Shown piece after piece: positions 1-9,181 of a DNA stretch of 9,181 nt. The stretch lies in the IMG/VR virus record IMGVR_UViG_2778261527_000006. One strand, written 5' to 3'. Source of the DNA: a virus (Duplodnaviria > Heunggongvirae > Uroviricota > Caudoviricetes). A program made the position numbers and the translations under genes. The notes beneath the pieces were generated by a model. The model was given only the letters and a program-made list of their open reading frames with translations, did no database searches and was not told the origin of the DNA. Within the stretch, counting starts at the first letter, position 1; each line of letters begins with the position of its first letter.

Positions 1-159
1 TCGACTATTCCATGAAGAAATCGCTTCAGATTTAGTTCGTTTTTCTGGTCCTTGGGCACCACATTTGCATGACACATAGCGCATTTTCCCTCTGATACTG
101 AATGAGTATCCGATGTTAAGCACAGTGGAACCACAGAATGGGCAGCGATAGAGATTCAT
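1..159 (-). CDS. Lar-family restriction alleviation protein, C-terminal end cut by the window edge
   Basis: Minus-strand ORF with ATG at 157-159 (rc), preceded by a strong SD (AAGGTGGA, about 7 nt spacing). Translation MNLYRCPFCGSTVLNIGYSFSIRGKMRYVSCKCGAQGPEKRTKSEAISSWNSR... has the C-P-F-C-G ... C-x-C-G-A ... A-I-x-x-W-N-x-R pattern typical of small Lar/RalR-type zinc-ribbon proteins. No stop codon before position 1, so the 3' end is missing. Confidence 0.65.
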   Translation of the reverse strand, partial: MNLYRCPFCGSTVLNIGYSFSIRGKMRYVSCKCGAQGPEKRTKSEAISSWNSR

Positions 160-257
160 AAATCATCCACCTTAGGCGCAGCTGAGACAGCAACATTCCA
201 GAACTCAGAAAACATATTGTATGCACCAGATAGATTGGAAGTGGCATACCCTCCAAG

Positions 258-491
258 CTAACTTCTAATCTGAACGGCTCTCATCATTTCCGGCGTTAAC
301 TCCTTCGGCACCATAACCCAACCATCCGGAGTTACCGGAGAGTTGCCATCCAGCGCGTTCAACTTGTAAGCCTGGCTTACAGGTTCGGCACTATGAAGCA
401 TGGCAGCGCGGCAGGCGTTCCAGCCTTGAACCTTAGCTATTGCCACAACTGCATCGGTAAAGAACATTCTCGCGGTATCTGGCTCCGGCAT
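258..491 (-). CDS. hypothetical phage early-region protein with repeated VP-x-E-(L/P)-T-P-E-M motif
   Basis: Minus-strand ORF immediately upstream of, and co-oriented with, the Lar-like gene. The C-terminus ...PDGWVMVPKELTPEMMRAVQIRS and an internal VPDEMPEPDTARMF resemble a motif I recall from small lambdoid-prophage proteins; the family name is not certain. The track ORF (258..551) begins at a TTG with no SD; the first in-frame ATG is at 491 with a weak GGA-type SD, so the start is uncertain. Confidence 0.4.
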   Translation of the reverse strand: MPEPDTARMFFTDAVVAIAKVQGWNACRAAMLHSAEPVSQAYKLNALDGNSPVTPDGWVMVPKELTPEMMRAVQIRS

Positions 492-592
492 TTCATCCGG
501 CACCGCTTGCTGCGGTATCAGGAGCCGGTGCAGAATATGCCAGGGCAACAATCTACTACTGGCAGTAACTTTTCTTCACTATGGGGTGATTA

Positions 593-2590
593 ATGGCTAA
601 AGCATGGAAAGATGTTATCGCCTCTCCACAGTATCAGGCGTTAGCACCAGAACAAAAAGCGCAGGCTCAGGAGCAATACTTCAATGAAGTCGTGGCCCCG
701 CAAGCCGGAGAAAATGCAGAGCAGGCTAAGCAAGCTTTCTATGCTGCCTATCCATTGCCATCTGTGCAGCAAGTGGAGACACAGCAACCAGTAGCACAGC
801 AACAACCACAGCAAAGTGGATTTATGTCTGATCTTGGCGAAGCAGTAAAAGAGACTGGCCGCGGACTGGTGCAGGCTGGCGTGAACGTGGCAAACATACC
901 TGCATCAGTTGCAGATGCTGTAACAAGCGCGGCGGCTTGGGCTGGCGGTAAACTCGGAATTGGCGATGGGACATATCACCCTGCGCCACGAGTAACAACG
1001 CAGGGATTAGAGCAGGACTTTGGCCTTCAGCAAGGCGCGCTGACTCCACAAACTACAGAGGGAAGGGTATTTGCTGAGGCATTGCCTTACCTCACTCCTG
1101 CTGGCATTGAGAGAGCGGCAACACAGGCACCAACACTCGCTGGTAGAATCGCTCAGGGTGCAACTCGCCTTCTCGCTGAAAACGCAGTCGGGTCACTTGC
1201 TGCAAATAGTGCGAAAGATGATGCGGAAGCACTCGCTACCGATTTAGGCGTTGGCGTTCTGGCTGGCGGCGCTATTAACGCTGCCGGACGTGGATTAGGC
1301 GCTGCTTATCGTGGCGTTCGTGGTGCTATTGCACCAGAAGCGCAGCAAGCTATCAGATTTGCAGAGCGTGAAGGAGTGCCTCTGCACACCACAGACCTGT
1401 TACAGCCTACTTCCCGCGTCGGAAAAATGGCGCAAACGACAGCAGAAAATATCCCCCTGGCTGGCACAAGCGGAATGAGAGCAACGCAACAGGAAGCGAG
1501 AAGCCAGTTGGTTCAGAGATTTGCTGATAAATTCGGTGAGTATGATCCAGCGGTTGTTATTGACAGCCTTAAAGCGAAAACATCAGGAATTCGTCGCGCT
1601 GCAGGAAATCGACTGGAGCAGGTTCAGAATGCTATGGCGAGAATAAACATTCAGCCTGCAAGAGCAATTCAGCAGATTGATACAGAAATATCTAACCTGC
1701 AGAAGCTTGGTAAGGTTGCTGATAACGAGACTATTTCAAAACTTCAGTCCTATCGTGATGAGCTTGTTCGCAATGCTGGTCCTGATGGTCCGGTAAATCT
1801 GGATTTGAAGCAATTAAGCGATCTGCGCAGCCAGTTCAGAATGGACGTGAAGGGGGAGCGACCAGTGTTACCAAACCGTTCCGATGCTGCCATTCAGCGC
1901 GTTTACAAGGCAATGACCGACGATATCAATGGTGCCATTGGTCAGAATCTTGGCAACGATACTCTCCGTAAATATCAGCAGGCCAATGCCGTCTACGCTG
2001 ACGAAGCGGCGAAACTAAAGAATACCAGGCTGAAGAATGTTCTCATGAAAGGCGACCTGACGCCGGAAGTTGTCAACAACATGCTATTCAGCAAGAACAA
2101 ATCGGAAATTAAGACTCTCTATAACTCAGTTGGTCGTGTTGGCAGGGCGCAAATGCGCAATGGCATCATTGGAAAGGCGATGGAGAAATCAGGTGGTTCC
2201 CCTGACCAGTTCCTTCGGCAGCTTAACATCCTGCAAAACCAGACTGGCATCACATTTAAAGGTCAGGAAGCCGCTTATCTGAAAGGATTGAAAAACTACC
2301 TGCAATCCACGCAGCAGGCTGCAAAAGCGGCAGTAACAACACCCACAGGGCAGCAAACTATCCCGTTCATTATTGGGTATGGGACGGCAATGAACCCGGC
2401 GACAACTGGCGCAGCAGTAAGCTACGGACTTCTTACTCGCGCCTATGAGAGCGAGCCATTCAGAAATGCAATGCTCCGAATGGCAAACACCCCACGCGGA
2501 TCAACAGCGTTCGAGAAAGCCATGCAGCAGGCACAAAAGGCCATTAACGCCCTGACTCAGGGGGCTAAGTCTGATGCGCTGTCAGAATAG
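593..2590 (+). CDS. putative phage DNA transfer / ejection protein (P22 E-protein class, gp16/gp20-like)
   Basis: 665-aa ORF with ATG at 593 and an upstream GGGGTGA SD, about 50% GC. Composition fits an ejection protein: Gln-rich N-terminus (QQVETQQPVAQQQPQQ), a Gly/Ala-rich hydrophobic stretch (LGVGVLAGGAINAAGRGLGAAY), then a long predicted helical region. It sits where the last ejection-protein gene lies in P22-like genomes, just before the immI (mnt) and tailspike genes. The functional call rests on synteny and composition, not a verified alignment. Confidence 0.5.
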   Translation: MAKAWKDVIASPQYQALAPEQKAQAQEQYFNEVVAPQAGENAEQAKQAFYAAYPLPSVQQVETQQPVAQQQPQQSGFMSDLGEAVKETGRGLVQAGVNVANIPASVADAVTSAAAWAGGKLGIGDGTYHPAPRVTTQGLEQDFGLQQGALTPQTTEGRVFAEALPYLTPAGIERAATQAPTLAGRIAQGATRLLAENAVGSLAANSAKDDAEALATDLGVGVLAGGAINAAGRGLGAAYRGVRGAIAPEAQQAIRFAEREGVPLHTTDLLQPTSRVGKMAQTTAENIPLAGTSGMRATQQEARSQLVQRFADKFGEYDPAVVIDSLKAKTSGIRRAAGNRLEQVQNAMARINIQPARAIQQIDTEISNLQKLGKVADNETISKLQSYRDELVRNAGPDGPVNLDLKQLSDLRSQFRMDVKGERPVLPNRSDAAIQRVYKAMTDDINGAIGQNLGNDTLRKYQQANAVYADEAAKLKNTRLKNVLMKGDLTPEVVNNMLFSKNKSEIKTLYNSVGRVGRAQMRNGIIGKAMEKSGGSPDQFLRQLNILQNQTGITFKGQEAAYLKGLKNYLQSTQQAAKAAVTTPTGQQTIPFIIGYGTAMNPATTGAAVSYGLLTRAYESEPFRNAMLRMANTPRGSTAFEKAMQQAQKAINALTQGAKSDALSE

Positions 2591-2679
2591 CTTCGCAAAC
2601 ACCAGGAACGTGCAAAAACCAAATATGTAGAACGCAATATTCAGCATATCTCTTTGCATAAATCCTCCGTAATGGATGG

Positions 2680-2940
2680 TTATCTGCTGTCTTTTTTATA
2701 TAGCTTCTTGAGCGTATCAAAGACAATTTTCTTAACCATATCAGATTGTTGTTCTGCCATACGCTCTGCATCGTCAATGTAAACTGATGCAGAGCTTTGT
2801 TTAGCCAACGATTCTTCAATCGCTGCAATTATCTCTGAGTTCAGCGATCTGTTATTCATCTTCGCACGCTGCTTAATTTTCGCGTGGAGTTCATGCGGAA
2901 GTCTCAAGTGAAACTGCGCCTCGTCGTATTTGCTGTACAT
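2680..2940 (-). CDS. mnt: Mnt-like ribbon-helix-helix transcriptional repressor
   Basis: Translation MYSKYDEAQFHLRLPHELHAKIKQRAKMNNRSLNSEIIAAIEESLAKQSSASVYIDDAERMAEQQSDMVKKIVFDTLKKLYKKDSR aligns along its length with P22 Mnt as I recall it (N-terminal beta-strand FNFRMP, RSMNSE helix, C-terminal VKKMVFDTLKDLYKK tetramerisation helix). An in-frame upstream ATG at 2973 with an AGGT SD would add 11 residues; homology to the short RHH N-terminal arm favours 2940. Confidence 0.8.
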   Translation of the reverse strand: MYSKYDEAQFHLRLPHELHAKIKQRAKMNNRSLNSEIIAAIEESLAKQSSASVYIDDAERMAEQQSDMVKKIVFDTLKKLYKKDSR

Positions 2941-3061
2941 CCTTGATGCCTCACCAGTTGGGTGGAATGGCATCGTAACCTACTGGATAAATACTCAATA
3001 GTACCATTTCGGTATGCAATCACATCATGGTTGCATCATATCATTCGTCTGGAGCAATGAA
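2941..3061. promoter_or_regulatory. divergent intergenic control region between mnt and the tailspike gene (candidate Mnt operator and promoters, not resolved)
   Basis: 121-bp gap between divergently transcribed mnt and tailspike. Contains an imperfect inverted repeat CACC-N5-GGTG at 2952-2964 and ATGCAA-N-TTGCAT at 3014-3038. No convincing sigma70 -35/-10 pair could be assigned by eye. Confidence 0.25.
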
Positions 3062-5128
3062 ATGTCAGATATCACCGCAAATGTTGTGGTAAGCATGCCT
3101 TCGCAACTCTTCACTATGGCGCGTTCTTTTAAAGCCGTAGCCAATGGAAAAATTTATATCGGTAAAATTGACACGGACCCGGTAAATCCTGAAAACCAGA
3201 TTCCGGTATATCTGGAACGAGAAGATGGTAAACATGTTCAGGTAGAACAACCAATTGTTATTAACTCTGCCGGTTATCCTGTGTATAACGGACAGATCGC
3301 CAAGTTCGTTACAGTGCAAGGCCATTCTATGGCTGTTTATGATGCGTATGGTGCACAGCAATTTTATTTCCCAAATGTGTTGAAGTACGACCCAGACCAA
3401 TTTAAGTATGAGCTTTCATCTTCACTTGGTTCTGGGATGGTTGGCGTCCAGCCAATTGGAACTTTGTATGATCAATCATTGTATGTTACACCGGAACAAT
3501 TCGGCGCTGTTGGTGATGGGGTTAATGATGATACAGAATCTATAGTGTCTGCTATGAAATACTGTTCTTCTGGGAAAATTCGTTGGGTAAGAGGTAAAAA
3601 AGGAAGCACATATCTCGTTTCTCAGGTAGAAATACCTGTTGGCATAAAAAAAATAAGTGATCTTAGCCTGATTGTCACAGCACAGGGTGGTGTCTGCTTG
3701 TTTTCGCAAGGTACTTCCGGTCACACAGACCTTGAAATTAGTGATTGTTCCATTAATGCAAATGGTGTTGCCAGAGGAGGAATTCTTCTTAGCGCAACAA
3801 CTAGGTGCAAAATACTAAGAAACAGAGTATATGGTTTCGGTGTTGATGGAACTGAACGATATGGTATACGTATTGGAACAACAGATATCACATCACTAAA
3901 CTTATACGATACCATAGAAGGAAATACAATTGAGATGCCCATAGATCCTGATAGTGGTGCAGGAACAGTTGGTATTGCTGGTATATATTTAGTAGCACAA
4001 AACAACATAGACACTGAAACTGGAAGTGTAAAATGGAATTCGCAACACAAAACCATTCAGTACATAACTGTGTCAAACAACACCGTTATCAACGGAACTC
4101 ACAACGTGCAAGCTTTCGGGTTATTTAATGCTGAATTTACAGGGAATATACTAATTGGAGGTTCGCATCGTAATATAAATCTTGGAACTGGTTGCGAGCG
4201 TGTAAAAATAGAGGGAAATAGGCTAATCAATGCAGAATCATCAGCAATTATTTTTGGAGAATCTAGATATATACAGATATCAAACAACTATATACAGTCA
4301 GCCTCTACTTCTAGTTACATATCTGATGATGCAGCTATCCAGTTTGCACAAGGTGCATACAGTATAGACATAATAGGCAACATGATACTAGGTGACTGGA
4401 GATACGGAGTACATTGCTTTAACTCGCGATATGTTTCATTAAAAAATAATACAATAACAGCATCTGTAGCTTGTATAGGAATAGAATCATCACAGACGCT
4501 TAAATTACCTGATAATGCAATATACAGTTCCAGAAGGAGTGTTACCAAGATGATTAATGGAAGCACGACTGAGTATTCCATATCTGGAAACGTATATACA
4601 CCTAACGGTGATTCAGCATGTGCTATTTATCTTTGCCAGCTAAATGGTGTTGTTCTTGGTAATATAAATATATATGGAGAAACAATCCATCAGGCTGGTA
4701 ATTTCAGACACATATTATACTTAGTTGAAGATGATAGTTTAATGACAGGAATTTCTGCCATAGATATTTCAGCAAAAAATGCTAATTACTCACAGTACTA
4801 TAGCATTAGGGGAAGGACTCCTTTCTATAAAATAGATAACGTTACCGCTCTTGAGGACCCATCTATTGAATATTTTGCTCCGGGAGGCACATCTAGTGCA
4901 TTTGTCGGGCCAAGCATATACCTTGACAATAAAGTTGTAAGTTACTTTTCTAATGGAATTGATGGGCAAATAATACAAGTAAGAATGTCTATAGGATCAA
5001 AGTTAATTCATAATAACAAGCTTATAAGGTTAAGAGGAGAAACAGATATAGCGTCAATATCAGGCAACACAATTATAACACTAAAAAGACTGAGTGGTAT
5101 TTGGTTTGAAATTTCAAGGAGTATATAA
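3062..5128 (+). CDS. phage tailspike protein: P22 gp9-type N-terminal head-binding domain fused to a pectate-lyase-like right-handed beta-helix receptor-binding/depolymerase domain
   Basis: The N-terminus [97 protein letters not shown]...NVLKYDPDQ matches the P22 tailspike head-binding domain ([56 protein letters not shown]...VLKYDPDQ). Downstream, [25 protein letters not shown] is a pectate-lyase-3-type signature, followed by repeated beta-helix motifs ([73 protein letters not shown]). The track ORF begins at ATG 3014, but the ATG at 3062 has a GGAG SD at 3051-3054 and gives the canonical N-terminus. Confidence 0.9.
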
Positions 5129-5174
5129 GGATTAGCTGGAGGGTTTAATAAAGCATGATAATTATTGCGTGTAA

Positions 5175-5217
5175 TAAATCACAAATTTAAACAATTCGTG
5201 ATTTATTTTCTTTTATC
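5175..5217 (+). terminator. candidate rho-independent terminator downstream of the tailspike gene
   Basis: Inverted repeat TAAATCACAAATT (5175-5187) / AATTCGTGATTTA (5193-5205), 12 of 13 bp paired, 5-nt loop, followed directly by TTTTCTTTTATC (5206-5217). The stem is AT-rich, so stability is modest. Confidence 0.35.
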
Positions 5218-5232
5218 TATGCGAAAATTACA

Positions 5233-5275
5233 AAATAATGGTGAGGTATTTTTCTATAAAGCCTCACCATTATTT
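5233..5275 (-). terminator. candidate terminator hairpin abutting the stop codon of the Wzy-like gene
   Basis: Perfect 13-14 bp inverted repeat AAATAATGGTGAG(G) (5233-5246) / (C)CTCACCATTATTT (5262-5275) with a loop of about 15 nt, ending next to the stop codon at 5276-5278. On the minus strand it is followed by TGTAATTTTCG, a weak T-tract. Confidence 0.3.
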
Positions 5276-6415
5276 TTACCCTGCGCAAAAATTGCGCAAA
5301 AAATCATTAAGATTTTCGCATCTTTTATTTCTTAGCATTTCTACACTCCTTTCATTATCCATAATCCAGTCAACTCTGTATTCCAATAATCTAGGTCTCT
5401 TTTCATCACTGAATGTTTTAACAGTTACAATTGATGAAATTAGAATGACCGTAGAAACTATAGCAATTGAATCGTAAGCGATTACGCTCTTTCTATATGT
5501 TGAAAGTATGTATCCAAACAAAAACGTCAATGGAATAAACATGTAATAGTAAAAGCGTGAAAATGCTGGTATAAAATAAATACCTATATGCAAGCATGCA
5601 AATATGAAAATTATATTCCATATTCTAGTGTATTCATCTTTACTTTTCCTGATTAGGAATCGCGTAATAATGATAAGATCAGCAATAATACCAAACCCAA
5701 AACCTACACTGCTGAGTGATTCTGAATAAAGAGATGCTTTACGCGCAAGCTCTACCCCAACTACAGGTATAGAGTAAACAAACTCAGTATTGCTCAAAAC
5801 AATACCACCAATTAATACCATTAAAGTTGTTATGCAAATACCTTTAATTACAAGCGGTTTTCTCTCTGAATAGTATACATGCCAGAATATCAGCACTATA
5901 ATTGCGGAGTAATGAAAAAGCGAAGCTATTAAAACAGACACTATAAATAGTCTGATTCTTTTGTCTAAAAGAAAATTAATTGAGTGGAAGCATATTACAA
6001 TAGCCACAAATTGACGTATTTGATCAACAACAAGAGACAGACCACCAAGCAAACACATGGCAAGCAATGTAGCAGGAATGTTTATAGGTATTGGTGCTTT
6101 TTTTAATGCAATAAAAGCGATGTAAAATGATAAAAGATAAAATATGAAAATAGCTGATTGAAAATTTATAGACAAATTTGCTAATACATAAAGATATATA
6201 TTGAATAGCAAATCGTAATTTATGGAGAACTCACTTTTAAATCCATCAAATACATAATAATAATTAACCCAATCAATTCCATTTGAATAGACAGCAGTAA
6301 AAATGCAAGAGCAGAATATTACATATGCCATTGCAAATAGTCGGTTAAATCTACATCTGAATGCACATATAAAAACGAAAGCAAGCGAAGTGAAGAAAAA
6401 AAATATCCAAATCAT
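5276..6415 (-). CDS. EpsG/Wzy-like polytopic inner-membrane protein (putative O-antigen polymerase / serotype-conversion protein)
   Basis: About 28-32% GC. The translation is highly hydrophobic with many predicted TM segments, and the N-terminal loop motif YSNGIDWVNYYYVFDGF resembles the G-x-D-(W/Y)-x-x-Y motif of EpsG-family / Wzy-type polymerases. No acyltransferase-3 (R-x-x-x-D-x-x-R-G) signature is seen. The track ORF starts at TTG 6439 with no SD; the first ATG at 6415 has an AGGT SD 6 nt upstream (379 aa from that start). Confidence 0.6.
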   Translation of the reverse strand: MIWIFFFFTSLAFVFICAFRCRFNRLFAMAYVIFCSCIFTAVYSNGIDWVNYYYVFDGFKSEFSINYDLLFNIYLYVLANLSINFQSAIFIFYLLSFYIAFIALKKAPIPINIPATLLAMCLLGGLSLVVDQIRQFVAIVICFHSINFLLDKRIRLFIVSVLIASLFHYSAIIVLIFWHVYYSERKPLVIKGICITTLMVLIGGIVLSNTEFVYSIPVVGVELARKASLYSESLSSVGFGFGIIADLIIITRFLIRKSKDEYTRIWNIIFIFACLHIGIYFIPAFSRFYYYMFIPLTFLFGYILSTYRKSVIAYDSIAIVSTVILISSIVTVKTFSDEKRPRLLEYRVDWIMDNERSVEMLRNKRCENLNDFLRNFCAG

Positions 6416-6439
6416 AAAATTACCTACAAAATTACACAA

Positions 6440-6518
6440 AATGAAGTCAAGTAGACATTTTGAAAAATGCTATTATAATAGCAAGAAAATCAACTAGTAA
6501 CCATAGTGAAAATCTTTA
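6440..6518 (-). promoter_or_regulatory. possible promoter region for the Wzy-like gene
   Basis: Perfect 12-bp palindrome CTATTATAATAG (6470-6481) containing a consensus TATAAT (minus strand, 6472-6477) 35-60 nt upstream of the candidate start codons. The -35 is poor (TTACTA), and TATAAT is frequent by chance in 30% GC DNA. Confidence 0.2.
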
Positions 6519-6722
6519 ATGCCTAGTGAAATTGTACAGTATATAGTTGCAGCAGTTACCATAATGATCGTCTACTGTCCAACGGTTTTGATTTGCATGC
6601 TTGTGGATTGGCTTCTAAGAAGCTATCGTATTGTTTCAAAAGAACAAAAAATAAATGGATTCATTGCTGGAAATGTCCTTTTTGTGTTCATTGCACCGAT
6701 ATTCCTGAACATGAATATGTAA
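6519..6722 (+). CDS. hypothetical small hydrophobic protein (67 aa, two predicted TM helices)
   Basis: ATG-initiated ORF in the gap between the Wzy-like gene and int. MPSEIVQYIVAAVTIMIVYCPTVLICMLVDWLLRSYRIVSKEQKINGFIAGNVLFVFIAPIFLNMNM has two hydrophobic segments. A 68-codon open frame is uncommon in 30% GC DNA, but the SD is weak and no homology is recognised. Confidence 0.25.
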   Translation: MPSEIVQYIVAAVTIMIVYCPTVLICMLVDWLLRSYRIVSKEQKINGFIAGNVLFVFIAPIFLNMNM

Positions 6723-7937
6723 TTATTTGGTTATGTTGACATTTTTGTTGTTTTTGCTGAGTGAATATAGCAATGTTGGTTGCTCCACCTTTTCATCAAC
6801 CCAATCCGCCCACCACTGCATCATTTCTCTGCGCTTATCGAGATACTGAGCATGGTTGTAAATCCCACGCACAGATCCGCCGTTGGCATGTGCCAGTTGC
6901 ACTTCAATAGCATCAGCAGGCCATTCGTGCTCGTTCATAATCGTGCTGAATTCATGCCTGAATCCGTGACCGCTTTCCAGACCCTCATAGCCGATTTGTT
7001 TGATCACAAGCAATACCGCGTTCTCGCAGATTGGCTTCTTCTTATCGTTGCGACCGGCAAAAACAAACTCTGATACTGGTTTGGTGATGGAGCTTAGCGT
7101 AGTGAGAAGTTCAACTACCTGGTCTGACATAGGAACCACATGAATTTTGCGTCCCTTCATCACACTGGCGTCGATGGTGATAATCCTGTTTTCAAAATCG
7201 ACGTTCTTCCATAGCATGGAACGAAGCTCTTTCGTTCTTAGGGCTGTGTAGCGTAAAACTTTGGTCGCAATGAGCGATACGATACTTCCTGAAAATGTTG
7301 CCAGTGCTTTGTTGAATGCCGGGATCTGGTCTGCAGGAAGAAACGGGAAGTTCTTCTTGCGGTATCCCTTCATGGCGTCAGCAAGGTCAGGTGCTGGGTT
7401 ATATTTAGCCCTTCCGGTGACAATAGCGTAACGGAAAACCTCGCCGCATCTTCTGCGGGCTTTGTTGGCTCGCTCCATTGCACCGCGATCTTCGAATCTT
7501 CGGATTACTTCCAGCAGTTGCATCGGCTCAATATCCTGAATCTCAAGACCGCCGATGATGGGTAAAATGTCGTCGTCAAACATTTTGGCAAGTTCGTTTG
7601 CATAGCCTACTGACCAGACTTGCTTCTTGTGCTCGTACCATTCCTTGTAAATCGCACTAAAGGAATTGTTGTTAGACGAAGCCTTTTTCGCCTTTACCGG
7701 ATCGATGCCAACCGAGATGTCTTTCCTCGCAGTCCATGTCTTATCCCTTGCTTCCTGCAAAGTCATAAGCGGATATTTTCCGACAGTCAGGATTTTCTCC
7801 TTACCGTCAATCTTGTAGCGAAGCTGCCATACCTTTTTCCCTGATACAGGGACATAAAGGTACAGGCCATTACCATCGAGTAGGCGGTATGGTTTTTCTT
7901 TCGGCTTTGCTGCTTCAATCTGCTTAACGGTGAGCAT
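6723..7937 (-). CDS. intS: site-specific tyrosine integrase (P4-type, tRNA-associated; IntS-like)
   Basis: The N-terminus MLTVKQIEAAKPKEKPYRLLDGNGLYLYVPVSGKKVWQLRYKIDGKEK matches the DUF4102 arm-binding domain of P4-family integrases. The catalytic region has HGFRHEF (H-x-x-R) and RGIYNHAQY (candidate catalytic Tyr). It lies directly beside the tRNA-Arg 3' end, as in the K-12 yfdC-argW-intS locus. The track start (7973) is a GTG; the ATG at 7937 gives the canonical N-terminus. Confidence 0.9.
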   Translation of the reverse strand: MLTVKQIEAAKPKEKPYRLLDGNGLYLYVPVSGKKVWQLRYKIDGKEKILTVGKYPLMTLQEARDKTWTARKDISVGIDPVKAKKASSNNNSFSAIYKEWYEHKKQVWSVGYANELAKMFDDDILPIIGGLEIQDIEPMQLLEVIRRFEDRGAMERANKARRRCGEVFRYAIVTGRAKYNPAPDLADAMKGYRKKNFPFLPADQIPAFNKALATFSGSIVSLIATKVLRYTALRTKELRSMLWKNVDFENRIITIDASVMKGRKIHVVPMSDQVVELLTTLSSITKPVSEFVFAGRNDKKKPICENAVLLVIKQIGYEGLESGHGFRHEFSTIMNEHEWPADAIEVQLAHANGGSVRGIYNHAQYLDKRREMMQWWADWVDEKVEQPTLLYSLSKNNKNVNITK

Positions 7938-7982
7938 GGGTAAAAATCCGGTGGGTAAAATTATTTTATCCACTTTTTACCC
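7938..7982. repeat. GGGTAAAA(A) repeats at the int 5' end (candidate integrase arm-type binding sites / int promoter region)
   Basis: GGGTAAAAA at 7938-7946, GGGTAAAA at 7953-7960, and the inverted copy TTTTTACCC at 7974-7982, all within 45 bp directly upstream of the int ATG. A consensus TTGACA lies on the minus strand at 7998-8003. Confidence 0.3.
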
Positions 7983-8098
7983 GTCATGGAGTGCGGCTGT
8001 CAACGATCTGACGCGAACCATGACGAACTGTGAATCTACGGGAGGCTTGATATTCAGGGGATTTTGCGGACTGGTACGGATGGGAGCGAACTGATAAA

Positions 8099-8173
8099 TG
8101 GTGTCCCCTGCAGGAATCGAACCTGCAATTAGCCCTTAGGAGGGGCTCGTTATATCCATTTAACTAAGAGGAC
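8099..8173 (-). tRNA. argW: tRNA-Arg (anticodon CCU)
   Basis: The reverse complement reads GTCCTCTTAGTTAAATGGATATAACGAGCCCCTCCTAAGGGCTAATTGCAGGTTCGATTCCTGCAGGGGACACCA: a 7-bp acceptor stem (GTCCTCT/GGGGACA, one G-U pair), anticodon loop CT-CCT-AA, T-arm GGTTCGATTCC, encoded CCA. The 3' end faces the integrase gene. Confidence 0.95.
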
Positions 8174-8178
8174 AATGC

Positions 8179-8220
8179 GGCATGAGTATACCCGCTAATG
8201 GACTGCGGGGTAAGTACGCT
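8179..8220 (-). promoter_or_regulatory. possible argW promoter
   Basis: Minus-strand TATACT (plus coordinates 8185-8190) lies 11 nt upstream of the mature tRNA 5' end; the -35 is weak. Low confidence. Confidence 0.2.
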
Positions 8221-8248
8221 GCCGCTCGATTGCTTAAACCCTCGCCAT

Positions 8249-9181
8249 TTATGCTGGGTTTTTATCATTTTTCTTAATGTTTTCCGCACGTTCTGCTTTT
8301 TGGCGTGCTTCTGCTTTACGCTTGTTGCTCATGTCGTTACGAATCTGTGCATGACTCATTAACGCGAAGATAAAGGTGCCGCCGCAGATGTTCCCCGCTA
8401 AAGTAGGTAGTGCGAAGGGCCAGATGAAATCGCTCCAGTGCAGCGTGCCGTTAAACACCAGATAGAGGATTTCAACAGAACCGACAACGATGTGGGTGGT
8501 GTCACCCAGTGCAATAAGCCAGGTCATCAATATAATCACCACAATCTTTGCCGCACCCGCAGCAGGAAACATCCAAACCATAGTGGCGATCAGCCAGCCG
8601 GAAATGATCGCGTTGGCAAACATCTCGCTGGGGGTGTTCTTCATCACATCCATGCCGATTTTGACAAATGCATCGCGAGTTTCTTCATTGAAGATAGGCA
8701 TATATTCAAATGCCCATGCAGCAATACCTGTCCCGAGAATATTACCCAGCAGCACGACGCCCCATAATCGCATAAGTAAGCCGACGTTGCTCATTGTCGG
8801 TTTTTGCATGACGGGTAGTACCGCAGTCACGGTGTTTTCGGTAAATAATTGCTGGCGGGCCATTATGACGATAATAAAACCAAAGGTATAACCGAGATTC
8901 TCCAGTAAGAAGCTGCCCGGCACACCTTCCAGTTCGACATGAAATATCCCTTTTGCCAGTAACGAAGCGCCCATCGACAGACCCGCCGCAATGGCTGACC
9001 ACAGTAGCGCCATTGCGTCGCGTTCCAGCTCTTTTTCACCATCCTGGCGGATATGCTCATGAATTGCCATCGCCCGGGAGGGGAGTCGGTCTTCATCTAT
9101 TTCTATTTTTTTGCCGCGCTCTTTTTCTTCGCTCTCAACTTCAATTTCGTCGCTGTGTTGATCAATTTTGTCGTTGTCCAT
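8249..9181 (-). CDS. yfdC: formate/nitrite transporter (FNT) family inner membrane protein YfdC
   Basis: Complete 310-aa ORF with ATG at the window edge (9179-9181): a hydrophilic acidic N-terminus followed by multiple TM segments, about 50% GC. Its position next to argW matches the conserved enterobacterial yfdC-argW arrangement. Identity is recalled, not searched. Confidence 0.8.
   Translation of the reverse strand: MDNDKIDQHSDEIEVESEEKERGKKIEIDEDRLPSRAMAIHEHIRQDGEKELERDAMALLWSAIAAGLSMGASLLAKGIFHVELEGVPGSFLLENLGYTFGFIIVIMARQQLFTENTVTAVLPVMQKPTMSNVGLLMRLWGVVLLGNILGTGIAAWAFEYMPIFNEETRDAFVKIGMDVMKNTPSEMFANAIISGWLIATMVWMFPAAGAAKIVVIILMTWLIALGDTTHIVVGSVEILYLVFNGTLHWSDFIWPFALPTLAGNICGGTFIFALMSHAQIRNDMSNKRKAEARQKAERAENIKKNDKNPA

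Follow-up and report, generated by a model that had tools for sequence, protein, structure and literature searches.

Gene organization of the window

The window, which is the whole stretch of 9,181 bp analysed here, contained one large gene for an ejection protein, preceded by partial genes on its left and followed by a tailspike gene, an integrase gene, a tRNA gene, and a host gene. The features were assigned as follows.

1-159, minus strand: Lar-like restriction-alleviation gene (homologue of Sf6 gene 20), codons 1-53, with its start codon at 159; the gene continues past the left edge
156-517, minus strand: ead/Ea22-like pseudogene fragment, the homologue of Sf6 gene 21, with the C-terminal 120 codons retained and the N-terminal ~106 codons deleted
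516-517, no strand: deletion junction, a 2-bp TA microhomology common to both flanks (ea22 and gene 12)
516-593, plus strand: tail of gene 12 (P22 gp20 homologue), last 25 codons and stop; the TAA at 591-593 overlaps the gene 13 ATG at 593-595
593-2590, plus strand: gene 13, ejection (DNA transfer) protein by homology to Sf6 gp13 and P22 gp16, full-length, 665 aa, ATG start
2680-2940, minus strand: Mnt/Arc-type ribbon-helix-helix repressor (mnt), 86 aa in public contig calls (Pfam Repressor_Mnt 8.8e-15, Arc 9.3e-15)
3062-5128, plus strand: tailspike, 688 aa from MSDITANV (Pfam Head_binding 2.8e-64; phrog_8280 1.4e-184)
5276-6415, minus strand: EpsG-family polytopic membrane protein (Pfam EpsG 1.4e-27; ~30% GC)
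6723-7937, minus strand: IntS-type tyrosine integrase (Pfam Phage_integrase, Phage_int_M, and Arm-DNA-bind_3), annotated intS in E. coli genomes
8098-8173, minus strand: attR core ATGGTGTCCCCTGCAG (8098-8113) at the 3' end of the tRNA-Arg(CCT) gene argW (8099-8173; tRNA located by ARAGORN)
8249-9181, minus strand: yfdC, a host gene of the formate/nitrite transporter family that lies beyond the prophage (Pfam Form_Nir_trans 1.1e-48; annotated in E. coli genomes)

The longest ORFs at these genes comprised 97 aa for mnt (2680-2973, minus strand), 704 aa for the tailspike (3014-5128), 387 aa for the EpsG-like gene (5276-6439), and 416 aa for the integrase (6723-7973, minus strand), and the yfdC ORF at the right edge of the window comprised 310 aa. 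The N-terminal domain of the tailspike was of the P22 head-binding type, and its receptor-binding part was a divergent β-helix. The EpsG-like gene occupied the serotype-conversion slot, which holds oac in Sf6. The attR core formed the right boundary of the remnant, and it was identical to the attP core of Sf6 and the core of KplE1. The gene content together with the argW tRNA gene identified the window as the int-proximal end of a P22-like prophage integrated at argW of E. coli. Some part of the window was matched by 5,425 of 5,426 complete E. coli genomes.

DNA upstream of gene 13

The preliminary description, made from the sequence of the window, had reported a lone ejection-like gene for 665 aa at 593-2590, stop codons in all three plus-strand frames of the DNA before it, and early-type genes on the minus strand immediately upstream. 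These structural observations were borne out by exact alignment with Sf6 and with contigs at 100% identity to the window. The gene was present as described, with an ATG start. The ORF listing for positions 1-592 gave stops in all three plus-strand frames and no ORF entering from the left edge. The minus-strand genes were the Lar-like gene and the ead/Ea22-like fragment.

The complete Lar-like protein, which was available from contig L006, comprised 100 aa and differed from Sf6 gp20 by one residue. The ea22 fragment was aligned with Sf6 and with E. coli FDN-24, in which the Ea22-like gene is intact (226 aa). It contained a nonsense codon at 258-260, where a mismatch at position 260 converts Glu to a stop, and this codon accounts for the division of the fragment into the two ORFs, 258-551 and 116-256, that had been noted previously. 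On the plus strand, frame 3 was open only from the ATG at 393 to the TAA at 591-593. The resulting 66-aa ORF (393-593) is a chimera of antisense ea22 fused to the gene 12 tail and is a chance product of the deletion. The gene 12 tail from position 516 was 100% identical to strain S1 and to the intact prophages on contigs L007 and L008. No homologue of gp7 or gp20 was detected in the window, where gene 12 was represented by its last 25 codons only.

Identity of the 665-residue protein

The 665-residue protein was compared with known ejection proteins and protein families. It was equal in length to Sf6 gp13 and aligned with it without gaps, with 658 of 665 residues identical (99%), and it shared 76% amino acid identity over the full length with gp16 of the P22-like phage ST104. 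At the DNA level, window positions 516-2660, which span the 3' end of gene 12 and the entire gene 13, were 96.8% identical to Sf6. The PHROGs family phrog_770, named DNA transfer protein, matched residues 19-665 (E=4.8e-238), and the entry PF26808 (Phage_P22_gp16) is recorded for exactly this protein. Searches of Pfam and NCBIfam detected no family, and no PDB chain was matched by sequence. The protein was thus homologous over its full length to the characterised members P22 gp16 and Sf6 gp13, and no homology to a non-ejection family was found. By this homology, gene 13 is a canonical E-protein gene of the Sf6 gp13/P22 gp16 family. The earlier alternative, that the protein is not a canonical E-protein and has another role, was rejected on the basis of its 99% identity to Sf6 gp13, its similarity to ST104 gp16, and its residue-for-residue identity to the gp16 homologue of prophages with a complete late operon.

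Codon comparison with Sf6 gave 50 synonymous and 7 non-synonymous differences in gene 13. The pN/pS value of ~0.044 indicates past purifying selection as a working phage gene.

Many RefSeq homologues of the protein are labelled as lytic transglycosylase domain-containing proteins. The sole trace of such a domain was a match of residues 163-384 to a PHROG family named transglycosylase (1.8e-31). The N-terminal SLT/lysozyme-like domain with a catalytic Glu, which characterises T7 gp16-type ejection proteins, was absent from the Pfam and NCBIfam results, and according to a review neither P22 nor Sf6 has conserved it (PMC8954989). A lytic transglycosylase function, as suggested by the RefSeq names, was ruled out on these grounds.

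The E-protein genes of this family are ordered gp7-gp20-gp16, after the head genes and before the tailspike gene. This order was not found in the window, from which genes 11 and 12 were missing except for 77 nt. A residue-identical protein occupied the canonical E-protein position in the prophages on contigs L007, L008, L009, L011, and L013; therefore, the departure from the canonical order reflects a deletion at the locus and not a property of the protein.

Deletion junction and the DNA lost

The two sides of the junction at 516/517 were aligned with different regions of the Sf6 genome. Window positions 1-517 matched Sf6 19040-19556 with 99.6% nucleotide identity; this Sf6 interval contains the beginning of gene 20 and the portion of gene 21 that encodes the C-terminus, both on the minus strand. 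Positions 516-1000 matched Sf6 from 11480 with 97.7% identity, a region that runs from the final 77 nt of gene 12 into gene 13. Window positions 470-570 were then read base by base against both Sf6 segments, strain S1, and FDN-24. The parent on the ea22 side reads ...GCTGCGGTA|ACTGTGG and the parent on the gene 12 side reads ...TTTGATTA|TCAGGAGCC, and the window reads ...GCTGCGGTATCAGGAGCC. The switch between the parents was abrupt, with only the TA at 516-517 in common. Strain S1 matched the window at 100% rightward from 516, but leftward it continued into gene 12. Conversely, FDN-24 matched at 99.6% leftward from 517, but rightward it continued into ea22. No insertion sequence (IS) element, inverted repeat, or repeat longer than the 2-bp microhomology was found at the junction.

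On the circular map of Sf6, the segment from 19557 through 39043/1 to 11479, which amounts to 30,966 bp, was missing from the remnant. By this map, the lost DNA carried the remainder of the early-left operon, N, the promoters PL and PR, and the repressor region. It also carried cro and cII, the genes for replication, and the nin region. The late control elements Q, the late promoter PR' (35980-36009), qut, and tR' were also lost, as were the late genes for lysis, both terminase subunits, portal, scaffold, coat, head completion and neck, and needle, and gene 10. Among the E-protein genes, gene 11 (the P22 gp7 homologue) and all of gene 12 except 25 codons were lost.

An exact-match scan of a species-representative genome collection with a 45-mer spanning the junction gave zero matches, and the junction was absent from the complete RefSeq E. 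coli genomes. EC7518 was the only complete genome that matched both sides of the junction. It was considered as a carrier of the identical deletion and was rejected by alignment, which placed its junction elsewhere, inside codon 6 of gene 13.

Attachment sites and boundaries of the remnant

The left boundary lay outside the window and was located on contig L006. A copy of the att core with 15 of 16 positions matching was found at L006 8651-8665, 758 bp to the left of the window, and was assigned as the attL core. The remnant measured 8,871 bp from core to core, with host genes adjoining both sides. A late operon to the left of gene 13 was looked for, as had been suggested, and none was present; the DNA left of the window in L006 comprised the rest of the Lar-like gene, a 55-aa gene, xis, and the attL core, followed by the host csc and dsd genes. 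The xis product (66 aa, annotated TorI) was 100% identical to Sf6 gp18. Just upstream of xis, 16 nt matched the T-arm of argW and were considered as attL. This candidate was excluded, since Sf6 itself conserves the match; the true core of attL was 294 bp farther left.

The order of the remnant was attL, xis (TorI), the 55-aa gene, Lar, the ea22 fragment, the gene 12 tail, gene 13, mnt, the tailspike gene, the EpsG-like gene, intS, and attR in argW. When compared with the Sf6 map, the DNA between the att cores in L006 was without the repressor, replication, lysis, and morphogenesis genes of the lytic cycle. The remnant carried duplicated att cores, one of them in argW, together with the IntS and TorI module, which are the features of a defective prophage at argW.

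Public contigs and other remnants

The exact 665-residue protein was found on 19 public contigs, of which 9 carried intact late operons, 8 carried this remnant, and 2 carried a second type of remnant (L010 and L012), in which the deletion extended from the abc2 region to the middle of gene 11. Contigs L006 and L014 were 100% identical to the window over all 9,181 bases. The intact prophage on L008 had a full late operon, with homologues of terminase, portal, scaffold, coat, gp4, gp10, gp26, gp14, gp7, gp20, and gp16, and it also carried the same mnt, tailspike, EpsG-like, and int genes. It differed from window positions 516-9181 by one SNP (8041). As an otherwise identical intact prophage exists with one SNP in 8.7 kb, the deletion must be very recent.

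Other remnants, in complete genomes, had arisen independently and differed in their endpoints. In strain S1, erf was joined to gene 12 so that the last 312 nt of gene 12 remained, and the nonsense mutation Q300* interrupted gene 13. In EC7518, an ea22-like gene was joined to gene 13 at codon 6, with codons 1-5 including the start codon gone. In A23, gene 13 was absent, and an IS1 element had removed everything up to the tailspike gene. The FDN-24 prophage was located beside sbcB and not at argW, and its gene 13 was truncated at the N-terminus and adjoined an antiterminator gene. The varied endpoints, and the fact that gene 13 was intact in some remnants and broken in others, indicate neutral prophage decay and not domestication.

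Several independent deletions ended within ~300 bp of the gene 13 start. This clustering is subject to ascertainment bias, since the strains were found by searching with gene 13.

Expression and function of gene 13

For P22, an in situ cryo-EM preprint reports that the proteins gp7*, gp20, and gp16 assemble sequentially into a trans-envelope channel of ~50 nm; in its model, gp16 alone forms the part of the channel that spans the cytoplasmic membrane, probably templated by a "plinth" of gp20 (bioRxiv 10.64898/2026.09.03.749273). According to the literature, proteins of the P22 gp16 family are packaged in the virion and are ejected ahead of the DNA. P22 gp16 is needed for passage of the DNA over the cytoplasmic membrane, and gp16 of one P22 particle works in trans, outside the cytoplasm, for another that infects the same cell. 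By analogy with P22 gp16, the 665-residue protein presumably has the same membrane-spanning role in the intact phage.

A scan with a simple consensus, which may miss weak promoters, found no σ70-like site on the plus strand in window positions 1-592 or in the 1.9 kb upstream in L006. Since gp7, gp20, the capsid, Q, and PR' were gone and no promoter-like site was found, gene 13 appears to be a silent relic, neither transcribed nor functional in the remnant.

The host gene cscB points toward the remnant, and read-through from it may occur. The overlap of the gene 13 start with the stop codon of the gene 12 tail was preserved, and the chimeric ORF at 393-593 could couple translation if a transcript crossed the region.

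Origin of the remnant

In all likelihood, the window shows the right-hand arm of a cryptic prophage of the Sf6 type (Lederbergvirus) at argW, in which one deletion of ~31 kb stranded gene 13, and its state reflects ordinary decay. The deletion would have arisen by a single event of illegitimate recombination at the 2-bp microhomology. It fused the middle of the early-left gene ea22 to gene 12, 77 nt short of the gene 12 end, removed ~31 kb, and produced the 8.9-kb remnant, with gene 13 left without its partner genes, a capsid, or a late promoter. The preliminary description had put forward a deleted remnant retaining the tailspike, conversion, and int genes as one of its two readings, and the ea22/gene 12 junction at 516/517 and the attL core 758 bp to the left of the window bear it out. 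The intact reading frame of gene 13 most likely reflects the recency of the deletion and not a retained function.

Another explanation is that the host keeps gene 13, perhaps along with mnt, the tailspike gene, and the EpsG-like gene, for a useful product. The product might block channel assembly by superinfecting P22-like phages, or gp16 might be supplied in trans. The intact ORF, the recurrence of the remnant on 8 public contigs, the trans activity known for P22 gp16 between co-infecting particles, and the three independent deletions that stop just upstream of or at the gene 13 start are consistent with this explanation. However, one SNP in 8.7 kb relative to the intact prophage leaves no time for selection to show, and the sister remnants were damaged, with a nonsense mutation in S1, loss of the start codon in EC7518, and absence of the gene in A23. 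In addition, the consensus scan found no promoter-like site upstream of gene 13, and the published action of gp16 follows its ejection from the virion, with none reported from the cytoplasm. Host retention of gene 13 for its product is therefore very unlikely. A more specific form, in which low-level expression of a retained orphan gp13, by read-through or from a weak promoter, yields a decoy against channel assembly by P22/Sf6-like phages, or gene 13 persists as part of a recombination cassette, is likewise quite improbable, and the damaged copies in the sister remnants argue against it. If true, a gp13 decoy would be a new kind of superinfection exclusion, and a cassette of gene 13, mnt, and the tailspike gene would rescue or re-tool incoming relatives.

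The late operon might also have been moved elsewhere in the genome by inversion or transposition, so that the prophage would be complete in pieces, and the window by itself says nothing on the rest of the genome. This rearrangement is exceedingly unlikely, because both flanks of the junction were in their native orientation relative to attL and attR, as a simple internal deletion produces, the whole element occupied 8.9 kb between the att cores with host genes directly on both sides, and the junction had neither an IS element nor an inverted repeat. A chimeric contig joining two parts of an intact prophage is scarcely credible: collapse of prophage repeats can yield false joins in short-read assemblies, but the same junction and all 9,181 bases were recovered at 100% in separate runs (ERR3062200, ERR3372528, and others), on contigs of up to 69.5 kb with host DNA at both ends, and the 2 bp in common at the join are too little to mislead an assembler.

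Comparison with related systems

In Sf6, gene 13 also overlaps gene 12 in a TAATG motif and also lies upstream of the tailspike gene. However, in Sf6 genes 11 and 12 and an entire late operon under the control of PR' come before gene 13, whereas the window retained only 77 nt of gene 12. No mnt gene is located between gene 13 and the tailspike gene in Sf6, and Sf6 carries oac in place of the EpsG-like gene.

KplE1 (CPS-53) of E. coli K-12, the studied example of the defective prophages at argW, shares with the remnant the argW site, the 16-nt core CTGCAGGGGACACCAT, and the IntS/TorI module, and both are remnants of ~9-10 kb without repressor, replication, or morphogenesis genes (PMC2951348). 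In contrast, KplE1 is an old remnant with a different set of 16 ORFs, whereas the remnant described here is the product of a very recent one-step deletion, with an intact ejection gene, mnt, and a full tailspike gene. P22 gp16 is listed as 609 aa (PMC8954989), compared with 665 aa for the protein described here, and the remnant was without the gp7 and gp20 partners.

The protein family and the class of defective prophages at argW are both already known, and the locus is nothing new in kind. Its significance beyond a correct annotation is small. The element should be annotated as a defective Sf6-like remnant at argW, in which gene 13 is an orphan ejection gene and what is left of ea22 and gene 12 are pseudogene fragments. 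It is also a clean case of one-step prophage inactivation. As the exact junction and an otherwise identical intact relative are known, the remnant could serve as a dated reference for the rate of decay of stranded virion genes. Since int, xis, and both att sites were retained, the remnant may still excise as KplE1 does. The retained tailspike gene and the putative O-antigen-modifying gene could affect the serotype.

Deletion junction and boundary of gene 13

The deletion produced a short chimeric ORF ahead of gene 13, the ejection protein gene.

393–593, plus strand: chimeric ORF of 66 aa, product of the deletion

This ORF was composed of antisense ea22 sequence joined in frame to the final 25 codons of gene 12 (the P22 gp20 homologue), and its stop codon overlapped the ATG of gene 13 as TAATG. 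The chimeric ORF is almost certainly meaningless; if the region were transcribed, it would keep translational coupling to gene 13. A second boundary was located at window position 562, 31 nt ahead of the gene 13 start. Because many phages and prophages aligned to the window starting from this position only, and not from 516 at the deletion junction, 562 marks a recurrent mosaic boundary, at which differing alleles of gene 12, coding for 431 aa or 462 aa, are joined to the same gene 13.

Tailspike and flanking genes

The region between gene 13 and int was composed of the following features.

2680–2973, minus strand: Mnt-like repressor gene, single gene in the gene 13–tailspike interval
2974–3061: short divergent intergenic region between the Mnt-like gene and the tailspike gene
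3062–5128, plus strand: tailspike gene, 688-aa form, with a P22-type head-binding domain at the N-terminal end
5276–6415, minus strand: EpsG-family polytopic membrane protein gene, in the serotype-conversion slot flanked by tailspike and int

The gene 13–tailspike interval contained the Mnt-like gene alone, without arc, ant or sieA. The intergenic region upstream of this gene could contain a Pant-like promoter pointing straight at the tailspike gene. In a promoter scan around this region, the sole match was a weak minus-strand promoter-like site (3068–3040).

Residues 1–113 of the tailspike formed the conserved head-binding domain, and the remainder was a divergent receptor-binding part, with the annotation 'colanic acid degradation activity' carried by the top PHROG family. 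A drop in GC content over the length of the gene (about 0.44 to about 0.35) suggests that a mosaic joint lies past the N-terminal domain. In two prophages with canonical late-gene order (L007 and L013), the tailspike gene was split by an IS element at the point equivalent to window 4327.

The serotype-conversion slot is occupied by the O-acetyltransferase gene oac in Sf6, whereas the window has the EpsG-family gene, with a GC content of about 30% between flanks of about 50%. The EpsG-family protein had no match in PHROG or NCBIfam. The same-position gene carries the annotation 'O-antigen polymerase' in certain E. coli genomes, so the EpsG-family gene is a candidate Wzy-like conversion gene.

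Attachment region

The remnant differed from the prophage with an intact late operon (L008) and from two remnants of the second type, type-B (L010 and L012), by one base in 8.7 kb, G versus T at window 8041, in the stretch that separates the intS start from argW. Position 8041 falls in the region where, in KplE1, the defective argW prophage of K-12, the att arm overlaps with the promoter of intS and with the binding sites for IntS/TorI.

The 16-mer GGAATCGAACCTGCAA (window 8113–8128) is the argW T-arm and abuts the att core within the tRNA. A second copy was located 20 bp upstream of xis and 294 bp from the attL core, at 8959–8974 of the window-identical contig L006. This xis-side copy was kept in Sf6 (18408–18423, within the annotated pI/bsq2 region), in the independently deleted argW remnants of E. 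coli strains EC7518 and S1, and in L010. Because the 16-mer recurs beside xis, apart from the attL core, the tRNA-homologous segment of the phage appears to be interrupted by gene 17' and xis.

In EC7518 (L001 1–14100), the attL side of the remnant adjoined another integrase along with a large island of AAA ATPase/RloB, ParB-like, recombinase and Hxs genes, an arrangement that suggests tandem accretion of elements at one site.
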